DNA of 64,000 nt from an uncultured Methanosarcinales archaeon (GTDB lineage: Archaea; Nanobdellota; Nanobdellia; Woesearchaeales; ARS49). The first letter of the stretch is position 1; each line of letters opens with the position of its first letter. The translations under genes were made by a program, and so were the position numbers. Location of the stretch: NCBI GenBank assembly GCA_964637115.1, contig CAZWVL010000002.1, positions 32,001 to 96,000 of the forward strand, read 5' to 3'. The notes below the pieces were generated by a model, which did no database searches, was not told the origin of the DNA, and was given only the letters and a program-made list of their open reading frames with translations. Positions 7,215 to 54,582 of this stretch are shown one piece after another.

Positions 7215-7250
7215 ATAACTTTTTAAACGCCGTTCTGTTAAAACCGCACT

Positions 7251-8206: not shown

Positions 8207-9017
8207 TGACTATGTTTTCGTCGTTTCGTTCGTTAGCAGCTTTTGAAGGATTGTAACTGCCGGTAATAACTGTATTACCGTCAATGATGAAAACTTTGTG
8301 GTGGACTTTTGCGATTTTTGACAAGTCTTTGAGTTTTTCGTATTCACTGTACTTGTTTTTTCTGGGATCAAATACGCCTCTTATGTCAAGACCCTGAGAT
8401 TTTTTCTCGAGCAACATGTTACCAATGCTGTCATCAGTAAACGAATAAGCCATGAAATGGATAGACTGCTTTGCTTCGCTCAATACGTTAATAACATTAC
8501 TTTGGCAATTGTCCTCGGGGCAGAAATAAGCTTCAGCAAGCTGTCCATTAAGTTTTACCAAACCTGGAAACTGCGTGCCACCATGAAAATCTTTATTGTA
8601 AAGCTCATCAAATTCTTTTTTATACGCATGTGCCAAAGTCCTGCTCTGAATCAAAACAACATTATTAGGAATCGTCATCTCTTGCGCAGGATTCCAAGAG
8701 CCGGTCCAGACATATTGGTTATCAATAACACAGAATTTGTTATGCATTAAGCCATTTCCAAATTCCGCAACAGAGCCCGGCAATGGGTGCTCCTCATCAG
8801 TAACCAGCTTGGCATCCTTTTGGTCAAGCAGGCCAAAGAAGTTGTTGTTAATGTGGTATAAGGCACACGACAAAGACTGGGCATTAGCAATCTTTTCAGC
8901 AAATATCTGAGTACAATTCACTTTATCGCAAAAGAAAGCCTCTATGGTACCTGTTTCCTCTGGAATAGGTGTTACCATGCACCCAACCAACAGTAGGCAA
9001 ATCAAGGCATACTTCAT
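8136..9017 (-). CDS. Phospholipase D superfamily lipoprotein (two HKD motifs)
   Basis: HNKFCVID...TGSWN and HHKVFIID...TGSYN motifs, with lipobox LLVGC. Confidence 0.88.
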   Translation of the reverse strand: MKYALICLLLVGCMVTPIPEETGTIEAFFCDKVNCTQIFAEKIANAQSLSCALYHINNNFFGLLDQKDAKLVTDEEHPLPGSVAEFGNGLMHNKFCVIDNQYVWTGSWNPAQEMTIPNNVVLIQSRTLAHAYKKEFDELYNKDFHGGTQFPGLVKLNGQLAEAYFCPEDNCQSNVINVLSEAKQSIHFMAYSFTDDSIGNMLLEKKSQGLDIRGVFDPRKNKYSEYEKLKDLSKIAKVHHKVFIIDGNTVITGSYNPSKAANERNDENIVIIRDPQIALQFEEEFSRLFGSSQ

Positions 9018-9184
9018 TTATAAACTCCTTCAGGGGCCCTTTATAAAGCCCCTGCCCATGATTACGTTGTTGTTACTCTTAAGTAGTCGGAAATCGAAAG
9101 ATTTATATATTCCTATACTATATGAGAGTAGTAACAAGGGTGGTGTAGGGGTGATAAAACATTCTACGCCATTTCATTTCAAAA

Positions 9185-10972: not shown

Positions 10973-10995
10973 ACTGCAAATAACTAAATGAGCCT

Positions 10996-13233: not shown

Positions 13234-13403
13234 TAACCGGTGTGAAGATGGGCAGTTCTTTTTAAATGTTCGGATACTATATATAGGCGGCAACATAAGG
13301 TATTTAAATGGATTCTTCATGAGGACGATTAATGGAAAAAGAGGCAGCGCCGAATGCGATTCGGTTGGTCTCTTTTTCCATAGCGTAAGTTAAAGGATGC
13401 AAT

Positions 13404-15047: not shown

Positions 15048-15140
15048 GTGTTGGAAATCCGCAAAAATAAATAATTGATTGTGAGAATCTCCGAGCACCT
15101 TTCCGAAGGTTTTAAATAACTAATATCCACAGGTGAGAGC

Positions 15141-15416
15141 ATGGCAAGAAAAATCAGAAAAGCGATGAGATTAGGAGCGCGCATTGTAACAGCAGCAAAA
15201 AGCAGGCTGGCACGCGATATGAAAATGCTTGTCAAATCAGGCATTATCAACAGAAAAGAAGCACAAAGGCTTGCGAAGGTAATAACTGCAGAAGTGAGAG
15301 TAGAAAAAGAGCGAATAAAGCAGTTTGCCAAGGCAGAGCTTAAGCGCGGACTTAAAAGAGCAAAACCGCTGGTAAAGAAAGCAGTTTCACGCTTGAAGAA
15401 GGCACGCAGACGGTAA
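15141..15416 (+). CDS. Highly basic small protein, phasin-like (COG3937-like pattern)
   Basis: Pattern KAMRLG...LVKSGIINRKEAQRL resembles phasin-like KKAFLLG...LVKKGEISKEEA. It is adjacent to the AarF kinase. Confidence 0.55.
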   Translation: MARKIRKAMRLGARIVTAAKSRLARDMKMLVKSGIINRKEAQRLAKVITAEVRVEKERIKQFAKAELKRGLKRAKPLVKKAVSRLKKARRR

Positions 15417-15450
15417 ATATTTAAAGCACACGAGCGTATTTCTTAAGACC

Positions 15451-16467
15451 ATGAGTGAGCATTTCCAAAAAGTATTCCTGCAGGCAGATCCGTTTACGGA
15501 CATCCTTGGACAGGAAAAAACAAAACAACAGCTGAAAAGTGCCCTTCTGATGAACAGGCACGTTATTGTGTTAGGTCCACCAGGCATAGGCAAGACTACT
15601 TTAGCGAAGAACGTGGCGCGCTTACTGCCAGCGCTTGTTGTGAACGAATGCGAGTACAACTGTGATCCGAAAAATCCTCTTTGTCCGGAATGCAAGGTCA
15701 AGAAGCCAAAGACAAAGAAAGTTAATGGTGAAGAGAGATTTGTAAGAGTGCAAGGCAGTCCTGACTTGACTGTTGAAGACTTACTTGGAGACATTGATCC
15801 GGTTAAAGCACTGCAATTTGGGCCGACAAGCATACAAGCCTTCACTCCAGGCAAAATATTCAAGGCAAACCAAGGAATATTATTCTTTGACGAACTGAAT
15901 AGATGTCCTGAAAAATTACAGAACGCATTATTACAAGTTCTTGAAGAAGGCAAGTCTACTTTAGGAGCTTACACAGTAGATTTGCCTGCAAACTTCATCT
16001 TTATCGGAACGATGAATCCGGAAGAGACTGCAGCAACTGAAAAATTGTCAGACGTTTTCATGGACAGATTTGACATAGTCCACATGGGTTATCCAGAAAG
16101 CCTTGACATCGAAAAAAGAATAGTGCTGAATAAAGGACAAAAGCTGCCTCTCGAGTTTGAAGACGAATTACTATCATTAGGAATATTATTTGTAAGAATG
16201 TTAAGAGAACACAAGAACATCTTAAAGAAACCAAGCGTCAGAGCAAGCCTTGGCATCTACGAAAGAGCACAGGCAAACGCCTTCCTGGCAAAAAGAAAAA
16301 TAGTAACGCCTGGAGACCTTGCAGAAGCACTTATATCAGTCCTAGCTCATAGAATTGAGCTTAAGCCGAGCGTCAAATACCTGCAGACGAACGAAGAGTT
16401 CATCAAAGAGCAGTTTGACGCGTTCTCAGGGCAACACCCCGAGCTTTCCGGTGGTGGTGGCCTTTGA
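15451..16467 (+). CDS. AAA+ ATPase, Mg/Co-chelatase ChlI/MoxR-like
   Basis: Walker A GPPGIGKT, Walker B ILFFDE, GTMNPEE, and DRF arginine finger. Confidence 0.92.
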   Translation: MSEHFQKVFLQADPFTDILGQEKTKQQLKSALLMNRHVIVLGPPGIGKTTLAKNVARLLPALVVNECEYNCDPKNPLCPECKVKKPKTKKVNGEERFVRVQGSPDLTVEDLLGDIDPVKALQFGPTSIQAFTPGKIFKANQGILFFDELNRCPEKLQNALLQVLEEGKSTLGAYTVDLPANFIFIGTMNPEETAATEKLSDVFMDRFDIVHMGYPESLDIEKRIVLNKGQKLPLEFEDELLSLGILFVRMLREHKNILKKPSVRASLGIYERAQANAFLAKRKIVTPGDLAEALISVLAHRIELKPSVKYLQTNEEFIKEQFDAFSGQHPELSGGGGL

Positions 16468-16468
16468 C
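16453..16468 (+). other. Candidate +1 programmed frameshift site (GGTGGT-GGC-CTT-TGA-C)
   Basis: Same layout as the prfB site (SD-like hexamer, 3-nt spacer, CUU-UGA-C). The +1 frame continues into the vWA ORF. Confidence 0.45.
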
Positions 16469-17638
16469 CTCGAGCAAGAAGTAAAGGACATTTCTCAAGG
16501 CGAAAGCGCTGAAGGCAAACTGCACAAGCAATACACTGAAGACAAACTGATGAATTCCGTATTAGCCGGCGACAAGAAAACAGTAGACCACGCCGAGATG
16601 ATACAAGAAGCGACAAATAGAGGAATCGGAGCTTTTACTCCAGACATGCTATTCGCCAGCATGTCGAAAAATTTCTCAATCGCAAAACAAATATTTGGAG
16701 ATAAATTGCTGAGGCTTCTTACAGGCTACGATCCCAATTACATAGAAAAAAACCTGAAAATTCCCGAGTTCAGGAAAGAGTTACAGAAAGCACTCTACGA
16801 AAATATTGGTCAGATGAAAGACGACAACTTACTGGATTCAGAAGGAATAATAACAGATAAAGGCGCAGAACTTGGCGCTCTTGTGTTAGTGAAAGAATTA
16901 GACAAGTTCATCGCCAAAGACAAAATGGGAGAAAAAGTCAACAAACGAGCAAGGCATTATGGGGAGAAAGCAGGCAACAGAAATTATCGAAAAGGAGACA
17001 GGTACAAGGATATCAATATCAAACGTTCTGTACATATGGCAATCAGAAGAGCGCACAAGAGTTTGATGGCGCAAGACTTGATTACTTCGGAAAGAGAGGG
17101 TAGGGGAAAAGTTTCAATTATCTTTGCACTTGATGCTTCCGCAAGCATGAAAGGCAAAAAGTTGGAAATGTCTAAGAAAGCAGGAATTGCACTTGCCTAC
17201 AACGCAATACAAGACAAAGATGATGTTGGTTTGGTAGTGTTTGGCAGCGAGATTAAAAGCGCCATACCACCAACACGCAACTTTTCAACACTTTTAAATG
17301 AGATTTCACACATCAAAGCTAGCAAACAGACAGACTTTGCAGCCATGATAGCAAAAAGCGTAGAACTATTCCCGCCGACTGGTGAGACAAAACATTTGAT
17401 ACTTTTAACTGATGCTTTGCCGACTGTAGGCAAGGACCCAGAGAAGGAAACTTTAAGGGCGGTAAGCACTGCACGCAGTGCAGGCATTACAATCTCACTT
17501 GTTGGAATTCAACTGGACAAAGAAGGCATTGAATTGGCAAAACAGATTACCAAGATAGGCGAAGGAAGGCTAAGCCTGGCAAAAGACCTTGCTAATGTAG
17601 GAAGCATTGTGCTGGAAGATTATTATGCGGTACGGTAG
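16457..17638 (+). CDS. von Willebrand factor A domain protein (ChlD C-terminus-like)
   Basis: MIDAS motif DASASM and LLTDALP. No ATG near the N-terminus, so it starts at GTG 16451/16454/16457 or is entered by frameshift. Confidence 0.85.
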   Translation: MAFDLEQEVKDISQGESAEGKLHKQYTEDKLMNSVLAGDKKTVDHAEMIQEATNRGIGAFTPDMLFASMSKNFSIAKQIFGDKLLRLLTGYDPNYIEKNLKIPEFRKELQKALYENIGQMKDDNLLDSEGIITDKGAELGALVLVKELDKFIAKDKMGEKVNKRARHYGEKAGNRNYRKGDRYKDINIKRSVHMAIRRAHKSLMAQDLITSEREGRGKVSIIFALDASASMKGKKLEMSKKAGIALAYNAIQDKDDVGLVVFGSEIKSAIPPTRNFSTLLNEISHIKASKQTDFAAMIAKSVELFPPTGETKHLILLTDALPTVGKDPEKETLRAVSTARSAGITISLVGIQLDKEGIELAKQITKIGEGRLSLAKDLANVGSIVLEDYYAVR

Positions 17639-17691
17639 TCACTCAGTCGTCATCAATCATGTTTAAAAGTGAATGTTCTTTCATATAGTAT

Positions 17692-18552
17692 ATGGTCTTT
17701 GAACGTTTGTACTCAGCAGAATTCCTGCACGACCATCCTTGGTATGGGCTGTTGCTCGGAATTGGCTATACAGTTCTGGGATTGTTCATTGCCCTGATGA
17801 TATTTCCAAATGACCCGGCTGTTATTGCAGTAGGAATTACGGCATTGTTCTTGATACCATCACTGTCAGACCTTACGGACAGCGCGGAAATCACAAGCAG
17901 AAGAGTGCCCACGTTCAAAGCATATATTCAGGAAACACTGCCGCACGTCAAAGTCTACATAGCAATCTTCTTTGGAATATTCTTCACGTTTGCATTCTTT
18001 TCCATTATTTTACCAAAACTAGCAGTCGGGCATTTGTTCAACATACAACTTGACATTGTCTCAGGCCAAGCAGCAGCTGGAATGGCAGGACGCTTCAGCT
18101 GGGCATTATGGTGGGACTTGTTCAGCTGGAACATGCAAGTACTCGGACTGTGCTTTTTACTGTCGCTAATAGCAGGAAACGGCGCAATACTATTCATTGC
18201 GTGGAACGCCAGCGTCTGGGGGACAGTATTCGGAACACTGGCAAAAACAGCAGGAGTTGTTTCAACAGCAAACCCCTTCATACTGTTTTTACTTGTAATT
18301 GTAAGCGTATTTCCGCACACATTCATGGAAGGACTCAGTTACATGCTCTCAACACTATCCGGCACAACGCTCTCAGACGGCATACTCAAAGAGAAGTTAT
18401 TATCAAATAAAATGGGTGTAATCTTCAAATACAACTTTTACCTGCTGCTAATTTCAATAGCCGTACTAGCAATTGGAATGATAATAGAAACGTATGTACT
18501 CGGCAACTTTGAAGTATACAGAACAATCATCAACATTGCCTTCCCCAGATAA
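17692..18552 (+). CDS. SpoIIM/DUF95-like membrane protein
   Basis: Multi-TM protein with a FPHTFMEG motif resembling PHGxxE. Confidence 0.75.
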   Translation: MVFERLYSAEFLHDHPWYGLLLGIGYTVLGLFIALMIFPNDPAVIAVGITALFLIPSLSDLTDSAEITSRRVPTFKAYIQETLPHVKVYIAIFFGIFFTFAFFSIILPKLAVGHLFNIQLDIVSGQAAAGMAGRFSWALWWDLFSWNMQVLGLCFLLSLIAGNGAILFIAWNASVWGTVFGTLAKTAGVVSTANPFILFLLVIVSVFPHTFMEGLSYMLSTLSGTTLSDGILKEKLLSNKMGVIFKYNFYLLLISIAVLAIGMIIETYVLGNFEVYRTIINIAFPR

Positions 18553-18578
18553 GAATATAAAGAGCAAATTTTTCTATC

Positions 18579-19196
18579 ATGAGCATGAAAATCCTGGCAT
18601 TTACTGATTTACACGCAGGCGTTACTGCATATAAAAAAATACAGGCACTCTTAAAGAAGGAAAAACCAGATTACATTTTCTGCCTTGGAGACTTCACAAT
18701 CTTCGAGCAAAACATAGAAGCAGTAATTAGAAAAGTAGCAGAGCTGAAAAAACCAGTTTACATAATACACGGCAACCACGAGACAGACGTAATAGTCAAA
18801 AAACTCTGCAAGAAATATCCGAACATGCACTTTGTGCACAGAACTCTGACAAAACTTGGCGATTATACTTTAGTAGCGCACGGAGGAGGAGGTTTTTACG
18901 GCCAAGGCAGACTGGCAGGAGACAAAGACTTTGACAGGTTTGTAAAAGAAAATAAAGCAAAACTAAAAGACAAATTAATACTCATTACTCACGCGCCTCC
19001 TGCACATACAAAACTTGACTATCTTGAATGGATGGACGACTACGCAGGATGTTCAAGCTATGCTGCATTCATAAAACAATACAAGCCAGTCCTAGCACTA
19101 TCGGGGCATTTGCACGAAAACTTTAGAGTCAAGTACAAAGCTGGCAAGACTCTGATTTGCAATCCAGGACCAGAAGGCATGGTGTTCAAAATATGA
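18579..19196 (+). CDS. Calcineurin-like metallophosphoesterase
   Basis: DLH, GD, GNHE, TH and GHLHE motifs. Confidence 0.92.
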   Translation: MSMKILAFTDLHAGVTAYKKIQALLKKEKPDYIFCLGDFTIFEQNIEAVIRKVAELKKPVYIIHGNHETDVIVKKLCKKYPNMHFVHRTLTKLGDYTLVAHGGGGFYGQGRLAGDKDFDRFVKENKAKLKDKLILITHAPPAHTKLDYLEWMDDYAGCSSYAAFIKQYKPVLALSGHLHENFRVKYKAGKTLICNPGPEGMVFKI

Positions 19197-20503
19197 GCAA
19201 CAAGCGCGTATTTCTGACACAAAGCGCTCTCTGGGCAGCATATGACGGTTTAACATCGGCTTATCTGGCAGCATTTGCGCTTGCTTTAGGCGCTTCAAAC
19301 GAAGTAATCGGCTTTTTAGGAGCGTTGCCATTTCTGGCAGCAATACTCACCCAAATCCCGGGCTCAGAATTATCACAACACTTCAGCAGAAAAAAAGTAT
19401 ACGTGCTGTTTTCCTTTATTGGCAGGTTATTCTGGATACCGCTATTGGCAGCACCATTCTTTTTTGAAAAACCGATATTATTCATCATCATATTCTATCT
19501 TATCATCAAACTAGGCGAGATGATAACAGACCCAGCTTATACTTCCTTGATGGCAGACGTCGTTCCACGTGACACATTTGGCGACTTTACAAGTAAAAGA
19601 TACAGGCTAATTGCTGTCTTTGGCACCATAACACTTGTACTGGGCGGATTATTGCTAAAACAATTCCCAAAAGAAAGCCCGGTAGGATTTGCGGTCATGT
19701 TTGGATTTGGCACATTATTATCAATTCTTGCAACAACCATAATGCTGCGCGTAAAAGAGCCATTGTACAAAGACCACGACCACCACGCAATCAAAGAATT
19801 TCTCACACTTGACGGGCCAATCAGACATTTAGTATTTTTTGGAGTAGCATTCAACTTTGCCTTCATGCTCGCATCACCATTCTTTACAGTATACATGCTT
19901 AAAACCCTTGAAGTCAGCTACATGTTCTTTGGAATTGCAACAGCAATAGCAACACTGGCGCAAATCGTATCCTCACATTATGTTGGCAAGTTAACAGACA
20001 AGTATGGAGACAAACCGATTGCAATCTTAGGTCATCTGGGAACTGTCATAATCCCGCTTTTGTTCCTTTTTGTGACGAAACAATCACTCTGGCTTATAGT
20101 ACCCGTGCAAATACTCAGCGGACTCGTATGGAGCGCAGCAGACATATCACGATTTAATTTATTGCTGGCACTAGCAGATTCCAAGAAAAGAGCAATGCAA
20201 GTGGCAGAGTATAATTTGTACTGCGCAATACCTTTGATTATTGCGCCAATACTAGGCGGCTGGATAACAGAAAACGTCACTTTGATTTTGACAGGCATTC
20301 CACTAGTATTTGTCATGAGCAGCATGCTCAGATTTTTGAGCACGCTTTTGCTTTTCAGAATTCAAGAACCAAGAGCAAAACACGAATATCCTTTGGTATT
20401 CGTATTCAGAGAAGCAATGCACTTCCACCCAGGCAGAGGAATAGTCCACGGAATACATGTTGTGAAGAGAGTGGCGGCTGGATTAGGGTTGGTGAATAAG
20501 TAA
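19193..20503 (+). CDS. MFS transporter
   Basis: About 12 TM segments, GKLTDKYGDK loop motif, and an ATGA overlap with the upstream gene. Confidence 0.88.
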   Translation: MSNKRVFLTQSALWAAYDGLTSAYLAAFALALGASNEVIGFLGALPFLAAILTQIPGSELSQHFSRKKVYVLFSFIGRLFWIPLLAAPFFFEKPILFIIIFYLIIKLGEMITDPAYTSLMADVVPRDTFGDFTSKRYRLIAVFGTITLVLGGLLLKQFPKESPVGFAVMFGFGTLLSILATTIMLRVKEPLYKDHDHHAIKEFLTLDGPIRHLVFFGVAFNFAFMLASPFFTVYMLKTLEVSYMFFGIATAIATLAQIVSSHYVGKLTDKYGDKPIAILGHLGTVIIPLLFLFVTKQSLWLIVPVQILSGLVWSAADISRFNLLLALADSKKRAMQVAEYNLYCAIPLIIAPILGGWITENVTLILTGIPLVFVMSSMLRFLSTLLLFRIQEPRAKHEYPLVFVFREAMHFHPGRGIVHGIHVVKRVAAGLGLVNK

Positions 20504-20526
20504 ATTGTATGAAAAGGTAGAGGTTC

Positions 20527-21012
20527 TTAATCGATTTGGCGGATGGTGTCTCCGATTTTTACTTGTCCTTCTTGTAAGACGCGCGCGTACCATCCTCTAC
20601 GGCCCAGGAGCGTTTTGATGAACGGTGCTTTCTTTTCTTCACCTACGTACGGAAGATGTTTGAGATTGCTGCACGGCTTGCATATTTTTGCGATTTGTAC
20701 AACTGCGTTTCCCACTTGGTAGTGCTGACCTAGTGCAAAGTGTGCGTATGGTATTCCCTGCGTGGTAAAATTCTCCCCGATATCACCTGCTTTTAAAGGC
20801 CAACCTTCATTATTTAACTGAACAATTGTTTCAAGAGGAAACAATAATACCGCCATGTCTGGATCATCATGGCATTTTTCATGACGATAATGGTTAAAAT
20901 CTCCAGCAGGACCACGGGATGTCACCTGCATCATCCCAACTGGTTGCTTCGGCAAACCATGCTCGCCCGATATTTCCGGCTTAATGTTAATTTGATAAAT
21001 AATGCCTTCCAT
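20527..21012 (-). CDS. MOSC domain protein (YiiM-like)
   Basis: GENFTTQG, CKPC and RRGWYARVLQEGQVKIGD motifs. Confidence 0.88.
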   Translation of the reverse strand: MEGIIYQINIKPEISGEHGLPKQPVGMMQVTSRGPAGDFNHYRHEKCHDDPDMAVLLFPLETIVQLNNEGWPLKAGDIGENFTTQGIPYAHFALGQHYQVGNAVVQIAKICKPCSNLKHLPYVGEEKKAPFIKTLLGRRGWYARVLQEGQVKIGDTIRQID

Positions 21013-21130
21013 GCTCTTTTGAATAACTACACGTTCTTAAAAACCTTCACCTTTTTAGATGGTCTCTATGAATATTAGAATGACCGCTCATTCCAATATC
21101 TATTTATAGCACTGTTATTTTTGCACATGA

Positions 21131-21532
21131 ATGAAATTCACCAAAAACTTATACATTATCGGCTTTCTGATGCTTCTCATCGCATGCCAACCAAGCACAC
21201 CTGAAATAAAAGAAAAAGGCACCCTGGAAGGCACGATACATATAGGCCCCATTTGTCCAGTTGAACGAATACCTCCTGATCCTCAATGCAAGCCAAGCCC
21301 AGAAACATTTGCAGCTTGGCCGATTTCAATTTACACGCCGGATAATAAAAAAACGGCAACAGTTGTATCGGACGCTGATGGACATTTTGTGCTGCAGTTG
21401 CCTGCAGGCACGTACATAATTGACCTTGAGAAACACCAGCCAATTGGAGGCAATAATCTGCCGGCAACTATTGAGATTTCTTCAGGCAGGACAACGACGT
21501 TTGATGTAGATATTGACACAGGAATCAGGTAA
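21131..21532 (+). CDS. Lipoprotein with carboxypeptidase-regulatory-like beta domain
   Basis: Lipobox LLIAC, GPICPVE, and SDADGHFVLQLPAGTY. Confidence 0.7.
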   Translation: MKFTKNLYIIGFLMLLIACQPSTPEIKEKGTLEGTIHIGPICPVERIPPDPQCKPSPETFAAWPISIYTPDNKKTATVVSDADGHFVLQLPAGTYIIDLEKHQPIGGNNLPATIEISSGRTTTFDVDIDTGIR

Positions 21533-21536
21533 AGTT

Positions 21537-22028
21537 ATGGATCTCCACGAAACACTTGCAAAATTAACAAGAACTGCAGTATTCAAAGACTGGCACAAGA
21601 ACAATTCCAAATATTTTCTCGCGCACGCGTTTGTAATGCTGGATGAGGCAAACAAAGGAATCTGGCAGGTAGGATTTTACAACTTGGAAAAGGAGAGAAT
21701 GATTACTTTTATTATTTCAGACAAAGGAGTCCAGCATACAGAAGAGCAGGAAGTGCTGAGGACAGAAGCAGAAATCTTTCCGTTGAAGCCGGAAGAAGTA
21801 ACACATTCTGTTGAAGACGCCCTGAAGACAGCAAAACAATGCCTCCAAGAGAATTATCGAGGAGAAATGCCGGTGAAGGAATTCTTCATAATACAGCATG
21901 CAGAAGGACACGCGATGTTCAACATTACATACTTCACGCAAAGTTTGAAGACGATAAACATCAAGATAGATGCAAAGACAGGAAAAATATTCAAACACAC
22001 AATGCAAAGTCTGGCTGAGTTTACATAA
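21537..22028 (+). CDS. Hypothetical protein with PepSY-like C-terminus
   Basis: C-terminal INIKIDAKTGKI resembles PepSY. Start placed after the upstream stop codon. Confidence 0.6.
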   Translation: MDLHETLAKLTRTAVFKDWHKNNSKYFLAHAFVMLDEANKGIWQVGFYNLEKERMITFIISDKGVQHTEEQEVLRTEAEIFPLKPEEVTHSVEDALKTAKQCLQENYRGEMPVKEFFIIQHAEGHAMFNITYFTQSLKTINIKIDAKTGKIFKHTMQSLAEFT

Positions 22029-22211
22029 TTATTTTCCTGCCAGTGTTGTCACTCTATATTGTGTGGAATATATTTCCTTTTACAACACTCTTTAAATATC
22101 TGTTTTCCTAATTTTTTTTCGGACGACGACAAAATTTTTTGTAAAAAGAGGCAGCGACGAAACTTGTTTCGTCGGGTCTATTTTTTGCAGGCAAAAAAGA
22201 GGTGTATTAGT

Positions 22212-22313
22212 ATGGCAGTAGCAGTGAATTACAAAGAAAAACTAAAAAATAAAGACCTCGACTCTTTCTTCCGCAATGCAGATGATCAAAACGCAGAAGA
22301 AGCAACGAGTTGA
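22212..22313 (+). CDS. Putative 33-aa small protein
   Basis: GAGGTG SD about 7 nt before the ATG. Sequence MAVAVNYKEKLKNKDLDSFFRNADDQNAEEATS. Confidence 0.45.
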   Translation: MAVAVNYKEKLKNKDLDSFFRNADDQNAEEATS

Positions 22314-22497
22314 TTTTTTATTATAAAGAAAAATTTCCCCTTGCGGGGAATCACCTCTTTTCTCCAGGATGATTATGCAATAAGCAGGTGCTTTAAATTC
22401 ATTTATGGTAAGATTTGTAATGTTTCCAATGTGGCTGCTGCAATTATGCTACTGCAGTTTACTAAATTTTAAATAGGACTTGGCAAATCTTCAGGAT

Positions 22498-23541
22498 ATG
22501 ATACTGGGGGTAACTGGACATTTGGCCGCAGGGAAAGACACGGTGGCCGAAATTCTAAAAGAAGAAAGATTCCACCAGATATCACTCTCAGATTTTATCC
22601 GCGAAGAAGCGAAAAAACGCAGAATAAAGGACACTCGCGAGAATCTCATTAATCTTGGCAATGAACTCAGGAAGAAACACGGCAGCGGAGTTCTTGCGCG
22701 CTGGGCACTGCAAAAAATCGAGTGGGACAAAAACTATGTCATTACGAGCGTCAGGAACCCAGTTGAAGTCGAGATTTTAAGGACAAAATCAAATTTCGCG
22801 CTTATTAACGTAACCGCGTCCCAAAAAGTTAGATGGGGCAGAATGCAGCAAAGACAAGTCACGGAAAAGCGAAATGATGACCTGAACACGCTTGAAGAAT
22901 TCAAAAAATGGGAAGAACAGGAATCGACAAGCACCGACCCGACAAAACAACAAGTCGCAACAGTAATGGCGATGGCTGACCTTGTAATTACGAACGACGG
23001 AACTCGTGAAGAGCTAAAAAAGAAAGTTGCCAAAATCCTAAAAGAATTGAAACGCAAGCTCGGCGATGAGAGGCCGAGCTGGGACAATTATTTTCTTAAT
23101 TTAGCATTAGAAGTAGGCAAGCGTGCAACCTGCGACAGAGGAAAAAGTGGGTGTGTAATCGTAAAAGACAAACGCCTAATATCAACCGGCTACGTCGGAG
23201 CTCCAGTCGGACTCCCACACTGCGATGAAGCGGGACATTTAATGCACACAGTGCAAAACCCTGACGGAACAACATCGCAGCACTGCATAAGAACAACGCA
23301 CGCTGAAACAAACGCGATAGCGCAAGCAGCACGCCATGGCATTTCAGTAAATGGCGCAACACTTTATTGCAAAATGGAACCCTGCTATAAATGTGCGCAG
23401 ATGATAGTAAATTCTGGCATAATCAAAGTTGTCTGCATGAAACGATACCACGGCGCTGCGTATACACGAGAGATATTTAAGGAAGCAGGCGTCAAACTGG
23501 AAGTCGTGCAGGATGAACTCGAAAAATACGCCAAAATGTGA
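22498..23541 (+). CDS. Fusion of P-loop nucleotide-kinase-like domain and dCMP deaminase
   Basis: N-terminal GHLAAGKDT P-loop. C-terminal RPSWDNYF, RATCDR, HAETNAI and EPCYKC Zn-deaminase motifs. Confidence 0.88.
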   Translation: MILGVTGHLAAGKDTVAEILKEERFHQISLSDFIREEAKKRRIKDTRENLINLGNELRKKHGSGVLARWALQKIEWDKNYVITSVRNPVEVEILRTKSNFALINVTASQKVRWGRMQQRQVTEKRNDDLNTLEEFKKWEEQESTSTDPTKQQVATVMAMADLVITNDGTREELKKKVAKILKELKRKLGDERPSWDNYFLNLALEVGKRATCDRGKSGCVIVKDKRLISTGYVGAPVGLPHCDEAGHLMHTVQNPDGTTSQHCIRTTHAETNAIAQAARHGISVNGATLYCKMEPCYKCAQMIVNSGIIKVVCMKRYHGAAYTREIFKEAGVKLEVVQDELEKYAKM

Positions 23542-23553
23542 TTATTCATTCTC

Positions 23554-24291
23554 ATGAATCTCGAAGACTATTGTACATTACTGAACGACGCACTTGCGCG
23601 CAACGAAACAGTTGTTTTCTCCTGCACTTGCACCATACGCTATTCAGGCAGGGCAGAAAGCTATCTGGGCAAAGGAGACAGAATAGTCATGATAAAATCA
23701 GACGGCGCGTTATTAGTACATCAGCCGACCGGCAATGCGCCAATCAACTACATGAAACCGCAAAGCACGCACAGCCTGAAACTTGAAAACGGCGCATTAG
23801 TGCTCAAAAGCCAAAATCTAGCACAGAAAGAAAAAATTGACATTACGATAGACAAAATACACTTCTTTAACAGTCACAAACTCGAAGATGGACAAGTAAT
23901 AAGCATAGCGGGAACAGAAGAAGACATGAGCGACATGATATACAAAAATCCAGAGTTCATAGAAGAGGGATTCAAACCAGTTTCGCAGGAAGAACAAACA
24001 AAATACGGCTTCATTGATGTCATGGGCGTTGACAAGAATGGAGTATTAACAGTAGTTGAGTGCAAAAGGTATTGTGCTGAGCTTTCTGCAGTTACGCAAC
24101 TGCGCCGCTATGTTGAAAAAATAATGGTTAGCAAAGGAATAACAAGAGTAAGAGGAATTTTAGCAGCGCCAAAGATCACTGAGAATGCAGCAAGAATGCT
24201 GAACGACTGGGGATTTGAGTTTGTATCAGTCAAGCCGCCAAAATACCTGGAAGAATACGACAAAAAACAGTCAAGATTAGACGGTTTCTGA
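23554..24291 (+). CDS. nucS: Mismatch-specific endonuclease NucS/EndoMS
   Basis: YSGRAES, IKSDGALLVH, PINYM, IDVMGVD, VVECKR, QLRRY and RGILAAP motifs. Confidence 0.93.
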   Translation: MNLEDYCTLLNDALARNETVVFSCTCTIRYSGRAESYLGKGDRIVMIKSDGALLVHQPTGNAPINYMKPQSTHSLKLENGALVLKSQNLAQKEKIDITIDKIHFFNSHKLEDGQVISIAGTEEDMSDMIYKNPEFIEEGFKPVSQEEQTKYGFIDVMGVDKNGVLTVVECKRYCAELSAVTQLRRYVEKIMVSKGITRVRGILAAPKITENAARMLNDWGFEFVSVKPPKYLEEYDKKQSRLDGF

Positions 24292-24292
24292 T

Positions 24293-24805
24293 TCAACCGT
24301 AATACGGATAATTCGTGGAAGGCCCGTAAGCCTGATACGGATAATTGGTTACCTGCTGCGGAATCCTTGAACAGACGCCAACACCAGTTGTGCCGGTCTT
24401 TGTATAATCACACACAAGACCATAATTGCAGCCATATTGCCTGCTGTTGATAACACCGCACAACTGCCCATCAGCACTGCGCGGAATGTTTACAGTAGGA
24501 TATTCAGCTGGCTTGATTTCAAAGCGTTTTTCCTGAGAAGTGGGTCCAATAGGATAATTAACCTGAGGATAAGGCGTTGTTGAATACCAGCCATCATACA
24601 AATACGGATGATATACTCCTAAGCCGTATGGAAAATACATGCTCTGGCGCGGATAATTGTGATACACAGGATAATAAGTGTAATCAGGAGTTCCGTAATT
24701 ATACACGGCGCCATAACGGGTGTAACCCCACCTGCTTGCAGCGCCAGCAAAAACAGCAACCAACAATACAACAGCAACAACTGCCATTATAGTCTTTTTC
24801 ACCAT
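24293..24805 (-). CDS. Secreted Tyr/Pro-rich protein with C-terminal 4-Cys module (paralog 1)
   Basis: Signal peptide, Tyr-rich body, and LCG-x6/7-C-xx-GLVCDY...GVC module. Confidence 0.75.
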   Translation of the reverse strand: MVKKTIMAVVAVVLLVAVFAGAASRWGYTRYGAVYNYGTPDYTYYPVYHNYPRQSMYFPYGLGVYHPYLYDGWYSTTPYPQVNYPIGPTSQEKRFEIKPAEYPTVNIPRSADGQLCGVINSRQYGCNYGLVCDYTKTGTTGVGVCSRIPQQVTNYPYQAYGPSTNYPYYG

Positions 24806-24858
24806 CTTTTTCAGATACAAGAAAACTTTTAGGCTTTAAAAATCTATGCCTTTAAAAA

Positions 24859-25320
24859 TTAAGCAGAACGTGAACAAATGCCGACGCTTGGCTGTGCAGT
24901 CCTGGAATAATCACAGAACAAGCCAAATTCACAGCTGTATTCACCCATTCCAACACTACCGCAAAGCATTCCTTCTCTTGCTCGCGGTGTAACTCCAACG
25001 TATGTTGGATATGTTTGCAACGGTTCTCCAAAACGATTAGGCTTCACTGTAGAATAATACGGATAAACATACGATGGCCGCTGATACGCCGGCTGGCTGT
25101 AAGCAGGATACACGTTAACATATTTTGGATAATTCAGATAAGGCGTATATCCTGGATAGGCTGTTTGAGTATAAGGATAAAATTTTGGATAAGATGTCTC
25201 AGGAGAATAAGTGTAAACATATCTAGAAGGCAGGTAACCACCATACCTGTAGGAAGCGCCAACAACAACGGCGACTAACAAAACAACTGCTACAATAGCC
25301 AAAACTGTCTTTTTCACCAT
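24859..25320 (-). CDS. Secreted Tyr/Pro-rich protein with C-terminal 4-Cys module (paralog 2)
   Basis: Same architecture and near-identical N-terminus (MVKKT) as paralog 1. Confidence 0.75.
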   Translation of the reverse strand: MVKKTVLAIVAVVLLVAVVVGASYRYGGYLPSRYVYTYSPETSYPKFYPYTQTAYPGYTPYLNYPKYVNVYPAYSQPAYQRPSYVYPYYSTVKPNRFGEPLQTYPTYVGVTPRAREGMLCGSVGMGEYSCEFGLFCDYSRTAQPSVGICSRSA

Positions 25321-49206: not shown

Positions 49207-49315
49207 AATTTAACGTATTAAGACGTTGAACGATAAAAAGTTTGGTGACAAAAAAGTCAGTTTTTTAATTACATTTATAAATGGAAAACAACAGGATAAC
49301 CTAAAAAGTGTTGGT

Positions 49316-51076
49316 ATGGATCGGAAAGCTGAAGTTACGGTTTTGATAATGGTGCTGGTTGTAGCAGCTATAGCCGGCACGCTTGCATTAATAGGCAAAG
49401 AAAAAGAATCAGCTACGCCAACGGGCTACGTGCCTGCTCCCGAAGAACAAGCACTCGATTATTTGCCGGCTGAGCAACAAATACCTGAATATGATGTCGA
49501 AGAGCAACCAGCAAGTTCTGCCTCTACTCCACAAGAACAGAACCAAAAATCTGCACCAATCACCGGATATGCACCATTTGGAATAAACACTTGCGCTTCT
49601 CCCTGTATTACAAATTCAGACTGCAGTGTAGATGAATCGTGCAACAGCGGTTGTTGTGAACCAATACCTTGCGTCACAGATACAGATTGTCCTTATCCTT
49701 GTTCAACAGTTACTGGTTTCAGTCTTGCATTTTGCAATTCTTGTGTAGACGGTTTCTGCAAAGACCCGTGCAGTTGCGGCTTTAAGCTATGCACAGTTAA
49801 TGCAGATTGCCCGGCTGCTCAGGGCTTCACAGGTTGCGTTAGTGGGCAATGCACATGTGGAGTCAACGGTCCGTGTCCTGCGTCAGGTGTTGGTAATGCA
49901 CAAAAGTTATTTTGTATTGACAATGGTGGCACCTTTTGTCCACCATCAGTGGCAGCAAACTGCAATTGTCGCGATTGCAGTTCAGACATCTGTGGTACGA
50001 GTTGCCGATCTTCGATACCATGCAGCGTCAACAGCGACTGCCCCTTACGCAGGCCCGTTTGCTGTGATGGAGAATGTACTGCAGGCGATGCAACGCTTAG
50101 TGTTTGCCATAGGCAATGCAATACTGCGAATTTCCAATGCCAGCCTGGAGCATCACCTTCATGTCTAACTCCAACTCCGACTTCTACGCCGACGTCAACT
50201 CCGACGAGCACGCCAACTTCAACTCCGACTTCTACGCCGACTGAAACTCCTACTTCAACGCCTACTGAAACGCCTACGTCTACTCCGACAGAGACTCCTA
50301 CTTCGACACCTACTGAAACGCCTACGTCGACTCCTACAGAGACTCCGACAAACACTCCGACTGCTACCCCTACAAATACGCCGACTTTAACTCCTACGAA
50401 TACTCCTACTTCAACGCCGACAAATACTCCCACTTCAACTCCTACGAATACTCCTACTTCAACGCCAACAAGCACTCCGACTTCTACTCCGACTTCAACG
50501 CCGACAAGAACTCCGACTAGTACTCCAACTTCAACGCCGACAAGTACACCTACTTCAACACCAACTTCGACTCCTACTCCAGTTCCACCGCCAACTGTAG
50601 GAGCACCAGGTGCAGGTGGTGGAAGCAACAAATTTGTCACCTACAGTCCCAATTACTGCAGTTGTGTTACTCCTGAAGGCAGGTATGAACCAGAAGGATG
50701 TACTATTCGTCCAAGCATGCGCGGCAATCATCCGCTGTGTTCACGTGCATCGCCAGGAACAGCGGTGGCAGTTGCAGCAGAGCCTTCTAAGCCCAAGCCA
50801 CCACGGGAGCAAGCACCAGAACAAAATGTAGCGCCACCAGAACAAAATGTGGTATTGCCAGAAATTATAGAGCAGCTACCACCATACCGGCCGATTGAAA
50901 GTGCTGTGACAGAAGAAATAGATACGCAAGACTCATCTGTAACAGCAGCTTTGTTGATTATCCTGCTAATATTGGCTGCTCTTGGCTATTTTTACCGCCA
51001 AGAAATAATGGCGCTGTTTAAGCACAAGGCTTCAAAATCACACAAAAAAACAAGCGGTAAAGTAAAGACAAAGTAA
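49316..51076 (+). CDS. Cys-rich, Thr/Pro-repeat membrane-anchored surface protein
   Basis: MDRKA-E plus hydrophobic stretch (class III signal-like), about 250-aa Cys-rich region, TPT(S/E/N) stalk, TM helix and basic tail. Confidence 0.85.
50174..50581 (+). repeat. Coding tandem repeat of about 34 x 12 nt (TPTX)
   Basis: ACT-CCG-ACT-TCT-like units with heavy synonymous variation. Confidence 0.9.
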
Positions 51077-51135
51077 AAATCAATTAATATTTCCATCGAT
51101 GGCTTTATAAACCGTTTACTTCTCGACAATATTGT

Positions 51136-51209
51136 GCCCGCGTAGGCTAGCTTGGATAGACTGGAGGGTTGCGGTCCCTTCGACCTGGGTTCAAATCCCA
51201 GCGCGGGCG
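51136..51209 (+). tRNA. tRNA-Arg(GCG)
   Basis: Acceptor GCCCGCG/CGCGGGC, anticodon arm GAGGG-TTGCGGT-CCCTT, T arm CTGGG/CCCAG. The D stem is imperfect. Confidence 0.9.
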
Positions 51210-51304
51210 TAAATTCCCTTTTTGGGATTTGAACATCTGGAAGACTTCGTCTTCCAGCCCCTTCGTTTTCTGCGCAAACTTCAGGGAATCCCAGCGCGGG
51301 CGTA
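51194..51304 (+). repeat. 18-bp direct repeat of the tRNA-Arg 3' end (att-like)
   Basis: AATCCCAGCGCGGGCGTA at 51194-51211 and 51287-51304. Confidence 0.85.
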
Positions 51305-52330
51305 TTATTTTTTTCGTGCAATCAATTCCTCATAAATGCCTGGCGTAAATTGCCTCCAATAATGAACTTTGTCTTGAACAAATAAGTCGTAATAAACGAT
51401 ATAACTCTCAATTTCTGACTTAAATAATTCTATGCTTGAATTAAGCTCTTGCGGGTTTCTGGCATTCAGATAAAGAATCATGTCATAATCGCCGATCATT
51501 TTTCCTGCATAGAAAATATTTTGTAATTTGCTAAACGGTTTTTTCAGGATCTCAAGCGGTGTATCCTGCTCAACTCTTACAAGTAAATAATAAGTAATAA
51601 AGCCCTGCTTTGAATGATTAGGTATTCCACCAAAATTTAAGATTATTTTATTCTGAATAAGGCTGATTATTCTCTTTTTGACGGTATTTCTGTCAATTTT
51701 CAATTTTCTGCCAATGTCAATCAGTGATTCTTGGGGATTATCTGCTAAAAGCCTGAGAATTTCTATCTCTGCTTTTGTAGGCTCGTACTTCTCAAAGTCA
51801 GGATCAACGGGAAAATTTCTAGTTGCCAATACGCCGCTAAAAGAATGGTCCAGTTTCTTCTGAAATCTCGTCTTTAAGTCAAGCACAGGACTTAGTTGTG
51901 TAAATTCAAGATCTGAAAGATGGGTTAATATGAAATATTCTTTTATTTTGTTTTTACAGATTTTAAACAAGTCCTCTCTGATTTTGTTCAGATGGAATCC
52001 GTCTATTGCGTCAACAATGATCTGTAAATCATATCTTCCGATAAAAGAATTAATCCACATCACAAATTTATGTCTAGACAGATCATCATACAACTTCTGT
52101 TTGTCTTTAATACCTGCTTTAAACTTAATGAGAATGTGATAGCGCGTAAACCCCAATCTTCTGGCATCAACAAACAGGACGTATTGTTTGATAAACTCTG
52201 ATTTTTCCAAGTGCTTGATTTTATAGGAAATTGTGTCTTTTGAAACTTTGAGAGCCTGCGCTATCGTTGTATGTGAAACTCTGCAATTTTGAGCAAATAT
52301 CTCCATAATCTGCAGATCCTTTTTGTCCAT
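51305..52330 (-). CDS. Tandem Lrp/AsnC-family transcriptional regulator
   Basis: Two HTH plus RAM units (MDKKDLQIM...SHTTIAQAL...GRYDL; EILRLLADNPQESLIDIGRKL...GDYDM). Confidence 0.88.
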   Translation of the reverse strand: MDKKDLQIMEIFAQNCRVSHTTIAQALKVSKDTISYKIKHLEKSEFIKQYVLFVDARRLGFTRYHILIKFKAGIKDKQKLYDDLSRHKFVMWINSFIGRYDLQIIVDAIDGFHLNKIREDLFKICKNKIKEYFILTHLSDLEFTQLSPVLDLKTRFQKKLDHSFSGVLATRNFPVDPDFEKYEPTKAEIEILRLLADNPQESLIDIGRKLKIDRNTVKKRIISLIQNKIILNFGGIPNHSKQGFITYYLLVRVEQDTPLEILKKPFSKLQNIFYAGKMIGDYDMILYLNARNPQELNSSIELFKSEIESYIVYYDLFVQDKVHYWRQFTPGIYEELIARKK

Positions 52331-52439
52331 TTTTCAGAATAATGCTGTATTTCTATATAAATATTACACATTTTTCTTAAAAATGAATAGCAGATTTATT
52401 ATATTGTTTTATTCGTATTCTTTACTAGTGGGTGGTGAA

Positions 52440-53108
52440 ATGAATATTGAACAAAATCTAACCGGAACTGCAGTCAAGAACGGTTATGAAATTCTCCAAG
52501 ACAGAGGACTGGCAGTCGTTGGTATGAGTATCGGGAATAGTTATTTCAAAAAAGACCGAATAGATGCTTTACTCAAATATTGCACAAGAGTATTTTCTCA
52601 AGTTAGAATCCTGATTGCTGATAAGCCAATGGAACATACCTACAGAGCAATGGGTTATTCTTCTGCAAATGCAGGAACAAAAGCAAGATTAAAGGGAAAT
52701 GCATTGCAGAATCATAGTCAAAGAAGTATTGATGTGATTTTGGGAGGAGATATCAGATTAATTCAGTGGGAAAATGATATTCATCCCCGTGAAGCATATC
52801 AAAGAGAACTGCGAAGATTTGAAGAATTATATGGTGATGCTGATGGTTTTAAACAAGAAATAAGAGACACCACAAGAACAGTTTTGGATGGAAAACTAAA
52901 GCAGGGAGTAAAAATTGAGAGCGCTATTGATGAGGGAATTCATTATTTGTTAAAAGAGCTGGCATTTGTGTCCGCAAGTCCTGAAATACTTGGAACTCAA
53001 AAGGTGGCATATGTTTATCATACTCGGTGGAAAATATATGAAGATTTCGTTGACGGAAAATTTGACGGCCAAAAGAGAAGAGACTTGGGTTTTGTAGTTA
53101 TTAAATAG
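52440..53108 (+). CDS. tRNA-dependent cyclodipeptide synthase (CDPS), NYH subfamily
   Basis: VGMSIGNSYF (catalytic Ser, Asn), YLLKE (Tyr, Glu), AYVYH (Tyr-His). GGTGGTGA SD before the ATG at 52440; 222 aa. Confidence 0.88.
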   Translation: MNIEQNLTGTAVKNGYEILQDRGLAVVGMSIGNSYFKKDRIDALLKYCTRVFSQVRILIADKPMEHTYRAMGYSSANAGTKARLKGNALQNHSQRSIDVILGGDIRLIQWENDIHPREAYQRELRRFEELYGDADGFKQEIRDTTRTVLDGKLKQGVKIESAIDEGIHYLLKELAFVSASPEILGTQKVAYVYHTRWKIYEDFVDGKFDGQKRRDLGFVVIK

Positions 53109-53259
53109 AATTCCTTTGACATGGATCTAACGTCCAGATTAACCCTTCACAATCCATATTAAAAGCGCTTTCTTTGGAGATATCAATACCGACCATTTAC
53201 GAAGGAGGTGATTACCCAAAATAAAAACAAACGGAGGTGGTTAATGCCAACATTCTTCT

Positions 53260-53288: not shown

Positions 53289-53391
53289 ATAATTGCTCTT
53301 TTCCACAAATTCCTGAAGACAAAACATTCTTTATCACTCTTCAGTAGTTAAAATGGAAAGCTTTATAAATGGTGGAAAGAGAAGCAAAACT

Positions 53392-54582
53392 ATGGCGTCA
53401 GAACCAAATGAACAGAAAATAGTCATCACGCTCGACCAGTTACTTCTTAACGTAAGAGAGAGGATAGGAGAACTAAAGGACGGGCTAATTTGCGCGATTT
53501 TAGAAAAAGTATCACAGGGTATCACTGATTTTAAAGGGAAAGAAGCATTTTTGGTGAAGGAATACTTTCCTGCAGGCTATCTGCTGAACTCGGCAAACTA
53601 CTTTAGTGAAACTCTTGAAGATGTCAAACGTGATCCGCTGATAGAGGGACATGGTAATTCTGAACTTAGAGGAAGAATAATGAGTCAGATTGATGAAATG
53701 AAAAATGACGCTTCTAAGATTTTAAAAGATATGACTTGCACTGGTCTGGTTGATTTGAGTGCGAAATCCAGACGCCTCTATAAGGAAATGCTTCCAATAG
53801 TTGAGGAGAGCAGACAGATAGATCACAGAACAGGCCTCAAGATTTCTGACTCCCTCACGAACATATTATTCGCAAGTTTCAAGGATTACATTTCACAGCC
53901 TAACAAACACGTTTCAATAGTATATCTTGATATGAACAACTTCAAGCTTTACAACGACATTGCCAAATCAGAACAAGCAGACGTTGCCATTCAGCAGACA
54001 GCAGGACTCCTCAAGCAACTGCCGGAGGACGTTGTTGTAACAAGAAAAAATGACAAGAGAGGAGACGAATTCGTGTTGTTCATGCATAAAGATTATGACG
54101 GGGCAAGCAGAATAATGCATAAAATGTTTATCCCTCAGTTTGATGAAAAACTTCCAGCCATGATTAGGACAGCAATGGAAAAAAGCGCGCAAAAATACGA
54201 AGATAATTTTGACAAACTGGGAGGAAAATTAACATTCGCGATAGGAATAAGTTCAACTTTGCTGCAAGACGATATGACAATATTTGCAAGAGCAAAAAAA
54301 AGATTCGGGCAATCAAATGAAGAACTTTCGAGAGGTCTCGACAACTTTACTGCGTGCAGTCCAGCAGATTGGCATGATAAATACGATGGCCTGAGCCCCG
54401 GAGTTAGAAAAGATATAATTACGGTACTTAAAGGAACATTGCAAGCCGAAGCAGAAGCCGCAGCACACTGGGCAAAAAACCTGTCAAAAGACCGGCATAA
54501 CAAGGAATTTTATGAAAAAACAGTTCTGCGGGTATATGATCCAAAAGTTTTAGAATCAACTTATACTTATATTGGGCGCTGA
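53392..54582 (+). CDS. GGDEF-like (diguanylate cyclase fold) protein with RGDEF motif
   Basis: IVYLDMNNFKLYND...AD...RGDEFVLFM...LTFAIGIS. TTTATAAA at 53362-53369 supports the ATG at 53392. Confidence 0.78.
   Translation: MASEPNEQKIVITLDQLLLNVRERIGELKDGLICAILEKVSQGITDFKGKEAFLVKEYFPAGYLLNSANYFSETLEDVKRDPLIEGHGNSELRGRIMSQIDEMKNDASKILKDMTCTGLVDLSAKSRRLYKEMLPIVEESRQIDHRTGLKISDSLTNILFASFKDYISQPNKHVSIVYLDMNNFKLYNDIAKSEQADVAIQQTAGLLKQLPEDVVVTRKNDKRGDEFVLFMHKDYDGASRIMHKMFIPQFDEKLPAMIRTAMEKSAQKYEDNFDKLGGKLTFAIGISSTLLQDDMTIFARAKKRFGQSNEELSRGLDNFTACSPADWHDKYDGLSPGVRKDIITVLKGTLQAEAEAAAHWAKNLSKDRHNKEFYEKTVLRVYDPKVLESTYTYIGR

Follow-up and report, generated by a model that had tools for sequence, protein, structure and literature searches.

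Cyclodipeptide synthases (CDPSs), regulators of the Lrp family and gene layouts in which a regulator lies next to its target are textbook subjects. According to the family mechanism, a CDPS takes two aminoacyl-tRNAs, forms an acyl-enzyme on a serine residue and releases a 2,5-diketopiperazine. The pulcherrimin locus of Bacillus is yvmC-cypX with a MarR-type regulator, and among the archaeal Lrp/FFRP regulators BarR has a neighbouring target. In this work, a stretch of 64,000 nucleotides (contig CAZWVL010000002.1, positions 32,001 to 96,000; hereafter the window) from the genome of an uncultured DPANN archaeon (G000; 1.27 Mb, 27 contigs, 98% complete) was analysed, in which a CDPS gene and a gene of a tandem Lrp/AsnC regulator lie head-to-head. 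The locus is best explained as a horizontally acquired two-gene cassette just 3' of a tRNA-Arg gene, in which the CDPS is accompanied by a dedicated tandem Lrp that locally controls both genes; the probability of this reading is roughly 60%. The likeness to the pulcherrimin locus would be a CDPS under a dedicated local transcription factor. The differences are that the Bacillus regulator belongs to another family, that a P450 and an exporter are present there, and that the Bacillus locus is not a mobile two-gene unit.

The CDPS gene (52440..53108, plus strand) encodes 222 amino acid residues and is immediately preceded by a Shine-Dalgarno-like run, GGTGGTGA. It was assigned to the NYH type by Pfam and TIGRFAM profiles, by alignment with AlbC and by an alignment of homologues. 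The open reading frame (ORF) scored 121 bits with PF16715 (cut-off 27), the profile named as a check in an earlier note made from the letters of the window, and the match covered profile positions 9-219 of 220; the score with TIGR04539 was 147.7 bits (cut-off 45). In the profile alignment with AlbC (3oqv), residues S30, N33, Y169, E173, Y193 and H194 corresponded to S37, N40, Y178, E182, Y202 and H203, respectively, and all six were invariant in the alignment of 20 homologues with 50-71% identity. The catalytic set Ser37, Tyr178, Glu182 and Tyr202 of AlbC is represented by S30, Y169, E173 and Y193, and the NYH signature Asn40, Tyr202 and His203 by N33, Y193 and H194. The earlier note had recognised the catalytic set by eye, together with an Ala instead of the usual Pro after the Glu, and both observations were borne out: the position of AlbC Pro184, two residues past the catalytic Glu and Pro in both AlbC and YvmC, is occupied by Ala175 in the window enzyme and by Ala throughout its clade. 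Judging from these scores and residues, the gene almost certainly encodes a real CDPS that is probably active.

The closest solved structures were YvmC (Bacillus, cyclo-Leu-Leu; 3oqh; 87.7 bits), BtCDPS (6ztu) and AlbC of Streptomyces noursei. The window enzyme shares with them the Pfam and TIGRFAM family, a similar length, the Ser/Tyr/Glu/Tyr catalytic set and the Asn40/Tyr202/His203 signature. In contrast to these enzymes, it has Ala for Pro, Trp at pocket position 119, no P450 or oxidase partner gene and an archaeal host, and its scores against them are modest, that with YvmC being the best. The CDPS-like genes in more distant Lrp-linked loci deviated further. In one of them (L039, 3107-3922) Asn40, Tyr178 and His203 are replaced by Val, Phe and Gln, and in another (L033, 2201-2977) the P1 pocket is strongly deviant (IPCLSFLV). 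The Lrp-linked CDPS gene of L027 (39-854) is interrupted by an in-frame stop, which may reflect decay of this copy or an error in the assembly.

The substrate pocket residues of the window CDPS were extracted through a profile hidden Markov model alignment to AlbC and compared with Data Set 4 of Gondry et al. 2018 (PMC5816076). The P1 and P2 pockets were determined to be VGLAWFVY and TTVGTWK, respectively, whereas the clade-wide P1 motif was IGMAWF[LIV]Y and P2 was variable at four positions. Near-identical pockets occur in uncharacterised enzymes of the Candidate Phyla Radiation (CPR) among the matches listed from the sheet of unclassified NYH CDPSs, namely Kerfeldbacteria OGY85379 (VGLAWFLY/TAVGKWT) and Moranbacteria OGI43181 (IGFAWFLY/TGVGKWE) (PMC5816076). 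Since almost the same motifs appear in these entries, the pocket extraction, also a check named in the earlier note, can be regarded as confirmed. Among the matches listed, no group of characterised specificity matched VGLAWFVY/TTVGTWK, and the nearest characterised motifs disagree on the product (cFI, cPR, cPL and cFG) (PMC5816076 Data Set 4). A prediction of the product from P1 and P2 was dropped because the pockets match, among the matches listed, uncharacterised CPR enzymes only, in agreement with the earlier opinion that the product could not be read by eye. The same paper had only one archaeal CDPS on record in 2017, and that was of the XYP type (PMC5816076).

The CPR enzymes differ from the window CDPS in having their own C-terminal SBP_bac_3 domain and in lacking a paired tandem Lrp (L016); for these CPR enzymes a C-terminal 'ABC transporter domain' is recorded in Data Set 4 (PMC5816076). 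An exhaustive CDPS profile search returned 1059 representatives at E <= 0.001 and 152 at E <= 1e-30, and eight of the relatives, 320-500 residues in length, were found to bear a C-terminal SBP_bac_3 solute-binding domain. In five of these fused proteins (P0184, P0185, P0193, P0206 and P0263) the CDPS part begins at residue 2-11 with no N-terminal signal evident, and by sequence the SBP_bac_3 part looks like a cytoplasmic ligand-binding domain on the enzyme.

The regulator gene (51305..52330, minus strand) encodes 341 residues in the order helix-turn-helix (HTH), RAM, linker, HTH, RAM, as determined by Pfam and NCBIfam profiles, by the internal duplication and by a structural model. The AsnC-type HTH was detected with PF13404 in two stretches (53.1 bits) and with PF13412 (55 bits), and a comparison of the two halves of the protein gave 22% identity (E 3e-9). 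The RAM profile PF01037 gave 21.5 bits, which is under its cut-off of 25, and covered unit 2 alone. The AlphaFold model, built with 24 homologues, reached a predicted local distance difference test score (pLDDT) of 95.3 and a predicted template modelling score (pTM) of 0.92. In this model two HTH-RAM units are separated by a linker of about 40 residues, the RAM fold is present in both units, and each half superposes on the archaeal FFRPs PH0061, PH0140, FL11 and ST1022 with a template modelling (TM) score of about 0.8 and 20-24% identity. The two-unit Lrp/AsnC architecture proposed earlier from the letters alone is borne out by the two HTH units, the duplication and the model. The equivalog cut-offs of NCBIfam for LysM, LrpA and Lrp were not reached, the best score being that of LysM (84.9 bits vs 180).

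On the strength of the model, the tandem Lrp can be described as a single-chain equivalent of an Lrp dimer, and it is predicted to be a local transcription regulator. The archaeal regulators LysM, FL11/PH1519 and ST1022/Grp resemble it in the HTH and RAM fold of each half, and also in a gene that adjoins the presumed target and in AT-rich quasi-palindromic boxes in the shared control region (PMC2995911). Unlike these regulators, the window protein has two units in one chain and forms a pseudo-dimer of diverged halves. Three more tandem Lrp paralogues, 327-345 residues long and 23-25% identical to the CDPS-linked protein, are encoded in G000 at C5:87820, C5:48018 and C4:45233 (L067, L068 and L069, respectively), and a single-unit Lrp of 156 residues was found in addition. 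In this lineage, regulators of this family seem to occur usually as fused double Lrps.

The distribution of the two genes was determined in 61 related genomes, 14 of which, including the unpublished G010, belong to the same genus. The CDPS was detected only in G000 and in one genome of the same family (G021), and the Lrp orthologue was found in the same two genomes only. At its cassette locus, G021 has exactly the sequence of a 'Candidatus Woesearchaeota archaeon CG10_big_fil_rev_8_21_14_0_10_37_12' contig, and on this ground the assignment to DPANN/Woesearchaeota is reasonable. When genome, metagenome and assembly collections were searched separately from the CDPS and from the Lrp homologues, the divergent CDPS-Lrp pair was found in 17 distinct loci, with Lrp identities of 47-95% to the window protein and with unrelated flanks in every case. 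Among the 21 loci in which the DNA upstream of the Lrp orthologue was readable, 17 carry a divergent CDPS and 13 of these keep a rigid spacing. The pairwise identities of the two proteins correlated strongly in the 13 complete pairs (Mantel r = 0.92; reached in 0 of 5000 permutations). Because the loci are related to one another, this value reflects co-inheritance and is no proof of physical or functional co-evolution. The earlier note had named the linkage elsewhere both as a check and as one of the points on which its proposal could fall, and the pairing did recur. The two genes very probably constitute a functional and mobile unit, and their linkage and co-divergence point to a regulated small molecule.

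The insertion was resolved by comparison with congeners. The tRNA-Arg gene (GCG; 51135..51210, plus strand) was identified by ARAGORN and Rfam and by synteny within the genus, where the gene order is upstream genes, tRNA-Arg, a variable slot, a helicase gene and tRNA-Ile. In the congener G011 the slot is empty: tRNA-Arg is followed by 3 bp and then by DNA that matches the window from 53121 onward (82.5% over 1.44 kb), including a GGDEF-like gene with 79% amino acid identity. Since tRNA-Arg of G011 directly joins this DNA, positions 51212-53120 of the window are extra DNA. The cargo (51305..53120, 1816 bp) comprises the two genes with the control region between them and a further 12 bp after the CDPS stop codon, beyond which the host backbone resumes. 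No tailoring enzyme or exporter is present within the inserted DNA, which contains the two genes only, and this part of the earlier description was confirmed. The GC content of the cargo was 0.343, compared with 0.431 +/- 0.017 in other 1816-bp windows of the 64,000 nucleotides (z = -5.1); it was the lowest value in the window, the minimum of the others being 0.390, and the visible AT-richness noted by eye was thereby given a number. The empty site of G011 and the low GC content support a foreign origin of the cassette.

The earlier note had also placed the cassette beside a tRNA with an att-like repeat, which held in part. The tRNA-Arg gene and an exact 18-nt repeat are real: the first copy lies at the tRNA 3' end (51194..51211, plus strand) and the second copy at 51287..51304 (plus strand) abuts the Lrp stop codon, giving 2 matches with 0.02 expected and two matches in 0 of 100 shuffles. 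The attribution of the repeat to the cassette did not stand. The two copies enclose 75 bp only, with the cassette outside, and G007 has the same spacer and second repeat copy, and G008 a longer partial tRNA copy, both with other cargo and without the cassette. The repeat is therefore the mark of a repeatedly used hot spot, not a cassette end, and tRNA-Arg marks a variable slot whose downstream cargo differs among the species of the genus. The duplication of the tRNA-Arg 3' end 75-185 bp downstream was observed in at least 3 species of the genus (window 51212-51304; L061 of G007; L065 of G008). The second tRNA copy in G008 reaches back to the anticodon arm and is broken by about 50 nt of hairpin-forming DNA. 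Depending on the species, the slot contains a kinase-like ORF, a 290-residue ORF or the cassette.

Compared with a tRNA-targeted mobile element, the locus shows the empty site in a close relative; there is no integrase within the two-gene insert, and in the window no attL/attR repeats flank the cassette. On a single other contig, a tyrosine-type integrase was found at a distance of 3 kb from the cassette. In L003, a 57-nt direct repeat (95% identical; 4832-4888 and 6739-6795, spacing 1907 bp) flanks the cassette. Its left copy contains the last four Lrp codons and its right copy is the 3' end of a 187-residue ORF of an unknown family, which by sequence suggests site-specific integration into the end of that ORF. 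A tRNA was within reach at only 1 of 15 other cassette loci, so adjacency to a tRNA is no general rule. Carriage by a virus or plasmid was considered and rejected, as profile searches of IMG/VR contigs revealed no relative of either protein. A defence-system reading was likewise rejected, because PADLOC gave nothing for the CDPS and generic HTH matches only for the Lrp. Terminal inverted repeats of 12-24 nt in L008 and L003, which include both stop codons, lacked collinearity and did not clearly exceed the AT-rich background, and they were left unused.

The predicted control region of both genes is the 109 bp between them (52331-52439), the head-to-head layout and the length of the gap having been given correctly in the earlier note. 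In the 13 loci with rigid spacing the layout is common: the Lrp ATG, the Lrp TATA box, a central stretch with the consensus CATwwTTCTnAAA..., the opposed CDPS TATA box and the CDPS start. The TATA box of the Lrp gene (52354..52361, minus strand; TTTATATA on that strand) is a conserved block in the 13 loci and lies about 23 nt from the Lrp ATG; owing to this short distance the Lrp mRNA is probably leaderless or near-leaderless. The TATA box of the CDPS gene (52395..52403, plus strand; TTTATTATA) is conserved in the same loci, its distance from the Lrp ATG being 64-65 nt in 13 of 13 and that to the CDPS start 29-48 nt. Two inverted copies of an operator-like box of 16-20 nt bracket the Lrp TATA box. 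Box 1 (52369..52388, plus strand), which carries the central consensus, lies between the two TATA boxes and immediately 5' of the CDPS promoter elements; box 2 (52325..52344, minus strand) ends on the Lrp start codon, and the centres of the boxes are 44 bp apart.

A 20-nt pattern written from the central stretch was searched in the whole of G000 with 1 mismatch allowed. Only two matches were obtained in the 1.27-Mb genome, box 1 and box 2 in inverted orientation, whereas the control with the reversed pattern gave 0 matches in the same genome. Box 2 was also evaluated with a leave-one-out weight matrix, for which the central sites (box 1) of the other loci were the sole training set. In 10 of the 13 loci the best match on the Lrp strand was at -13/-14 relative to the Lrp ATG, and in 7 of these 10 box 2 ranked 1-5 among 7,000-25,000 positions. 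Judging from the conservation and placement of the boxes, the Lrp probably binds both of them, and the two-box layout is compatible with a locally acting factor that regulates both its own gene and the synthase.

In the proposed mechanism, the tandem Lrp would bind the two inverted 16-20-bp boxes of the control region. The box that overlaps the Lrp start site would provide autoregulation, and the box between the opposed TATA boxes, 5' of the CDPS promoter, would provide control of the synthase, of whichever sign. The CDPS would form its acyl-enzyme on Ser30 and release the diketopiperazine as other members of the family do, and through the two RAM domains its expression would respond to a small molecule. 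The product may serve as a signal, as an antagonist or in the handling of metals or nutrients. The leading candidate for the RAM ligand is an amino acid, in which case production would be gated by amino acid supply, but the proposal is tentative and falls somewhat short of even odds. It is noteworthy for this point that the CDPS lineage is connected with two different amino-acid-type binding modules, with RAM by way of the Lrp and with SBP_bac_3 in fused proteins. As an argument for gating of production by amino acid supply this is weak and indirect, and the SBP_bac_3 fusions can by analogy be taken as an indirect hint in that direction.

Several observations weigh against a dedicated local regulator. 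Box 1 matches the pattern by construction, as it was the source of the pattern, and only the match of box 2 is independent; both boxes are AT-rich and lie within an AT-rich region. The Lrp was more conserved than the CDPS in 78 of 78 pairs (mean 67% vs 46%), an unusual pattern for a regulator of purely local action. Other divergent neighbours, and no adjacent CDPS, were found for four Lrp orthologues (L024, L032, L035 and L038), which means that the Lrp can serve other targets, and CDPSs of the clade were found without an adjacent Lrp in L006/7/10, L013, L015 and the CPR locus L016. The higher conservation of the Lrp and the orthologues with other neighbours could be explained if the Lrp were a broader regulator that lies beside the CDPS by chance, the CDPS being constitutive or controlled elsewhere. 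The Lrp family is indeed wider than the detected CDPS clade (120 vs 21 clusters in a word-based search), the other neighbours include MFS and purine/cytosine transporters in L038, and G000 has the three further tandem paralogues. However, a chance neighbourhood is difficult to reconcile with a divergent CDPS at 17 of 21 readable orthologue loci and the rigid spacing in 13, with the joint presence or absence of both genes across the 61 relatives, with a box pattern found nowhere else in the genome and with the arrival of both genes in one insert, and a broader regulator was considered improbable. Still less can be said for a double Lrp-fold protein that functions as an enzyme, or as a partner protein of the CDPS, instead of as a transcription factor. 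The siroheme decarboxylase NirDL is a fused Lrp-fold enzyme, and it was the sole full-length structural match in the PDB (4ch7, TM 0.58/0.63); weak matches to AhbA and AhbB were also obtained. The identity to NirDL is 11%, compared with the 20-24% to the FFRP transcription factors. The NirDL/AhbAB profiles gave 29 and 26 bits where 125 and 140 are required, the AhbA/B matches spanning the HTH only, whereas LysM reached its 84.9 bits. No ALAD or porphobilinogen deaminase was detected in G000, which is therefore devoid of a tetrapyrrole pathway, and the conserved operator-like boxes also speak against this explanation. Because of the low AhbA/B scores and the missing pathway, a NirDL-type role is unlikely, and the non-regulator explanation as a whole was judged very improbable.

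A further alternative concerns the ligand. In an autoinducer circuit of the LuxI/LuxR kind, the cyclodipeptide from the adjacent synthase would be the ligand of the tandem Lrp, which in turn would act back on both promoters, and the outcome would be density- or host-dependent signalling. The earlier note had proposed either such a circuit or amino-acid-gated production of an unmodified cyclodipeptide for host or community signalling, and its interpretation is supported in part, the signalling role of the product being speculative. In favour of the circuit are the tight linkage and co-divergence of the synthase with a ligand-binding regulator and the confinement of the predicted regulator sites to the shared control region. 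In the absence of a tailoring enzyme, the pathway would end with an unmodified diketopiperazine that is probably diffusible. To our knowledge, there is no evidence for RAM domains binding cyclodipeptides, and the RAM ligands known from the family are amino acids. In addition, the invariant RAM motifs of the Lrp are kept in spite of strongly differing pockets of the partner enzymes (L033, L037 and L039), and the amino-acid-type binding domain with which related CDPSs are fused argues for sensing of the substrate rather than of the product. On the other side, diketopiperazines of a haloarchaeon activate N-acyl-homoserine lactone (AHL) reporters (PMC4609331). Like the cassette, LuxI/LuxR pairs join the gene of a small-molecule synthase to that of a transcription factor with a ligand-binding function, but they belong to unrelated protein families. 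In the cassette it is the genetic linkage that is shown, and the analogy is speculative. The autoinducer circuit was considered unlikely, and the cyclodipeptide product is a doubtful candidate for the Lrp ligand. The fuller proposal of a self-contained mobile DPANN signalling module, with an exported unmodified cyclodipeptide, the double-RAM Lrp as its receptor and feedback on both promoters, is unlikely as well. If true, these ultra-small symbionts would provide their first known case of quorum-sensing-like or host-directed chemical signalling, and the receptor would belong to a class not known to bind cyclic dipeptides.

DPANN archaea have minimal genomes and are thought to be host-dependent for building blocks; many of them nevertheless keep and exchange a unit that would spend charged tRNAs on a small molecule. 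An archaeal NYH-type clade is added to a family regarded as mainly bacterial, and the single-chain tandem Lrp, encoded four times in G000, is documented as a regulator architecture that recurs in archaea. In the full-text literature searched, which omits most subscription journals, no archaeal NYH CDPS clade, no CDPS-tandem-Lrp cassette and no tandem-Lrp transcription factors were described. New in this analysis are the empty site, the interpretation of the repeat as the mark of a hot spot, the Mantel statistic for co-divergence, the two-box architecture with its uniqueness in the genome, the CPR pocket match and the SBP_bac_3 fusions. The locus is a compact test system, with a 222-residue enzyme, one regulator, a 109-bp control region and two candidate operator boxes, for which the empty site of the sister species provides a natural control.

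The genes on both sides of the insertion were also inspected. Downstream, positions 53353-54582 (plus strand) encode a protein of 409 residues with a weak GGDEF domain (28.8 bits), in which GGDEF is replaced by RGDEF. This gene belongs to the genus backbone, outside the cassette; its homologue in G011 is the one that follows right after tRNA-Arg, and at the corresponding position G006 has a 26%-identical ORF and G009 an ORF of similar size. Upstream of tRNA-Arg, positions 49226-51076 (plus strand) encode a protein of 616 residues, in which a Cys-rich region precedes a stretch of repeats of about 150 residues, with a membrane anchor at the C-terminus. Repeat DNA similar to that of this gene was found several times on contigs C3 and C6.

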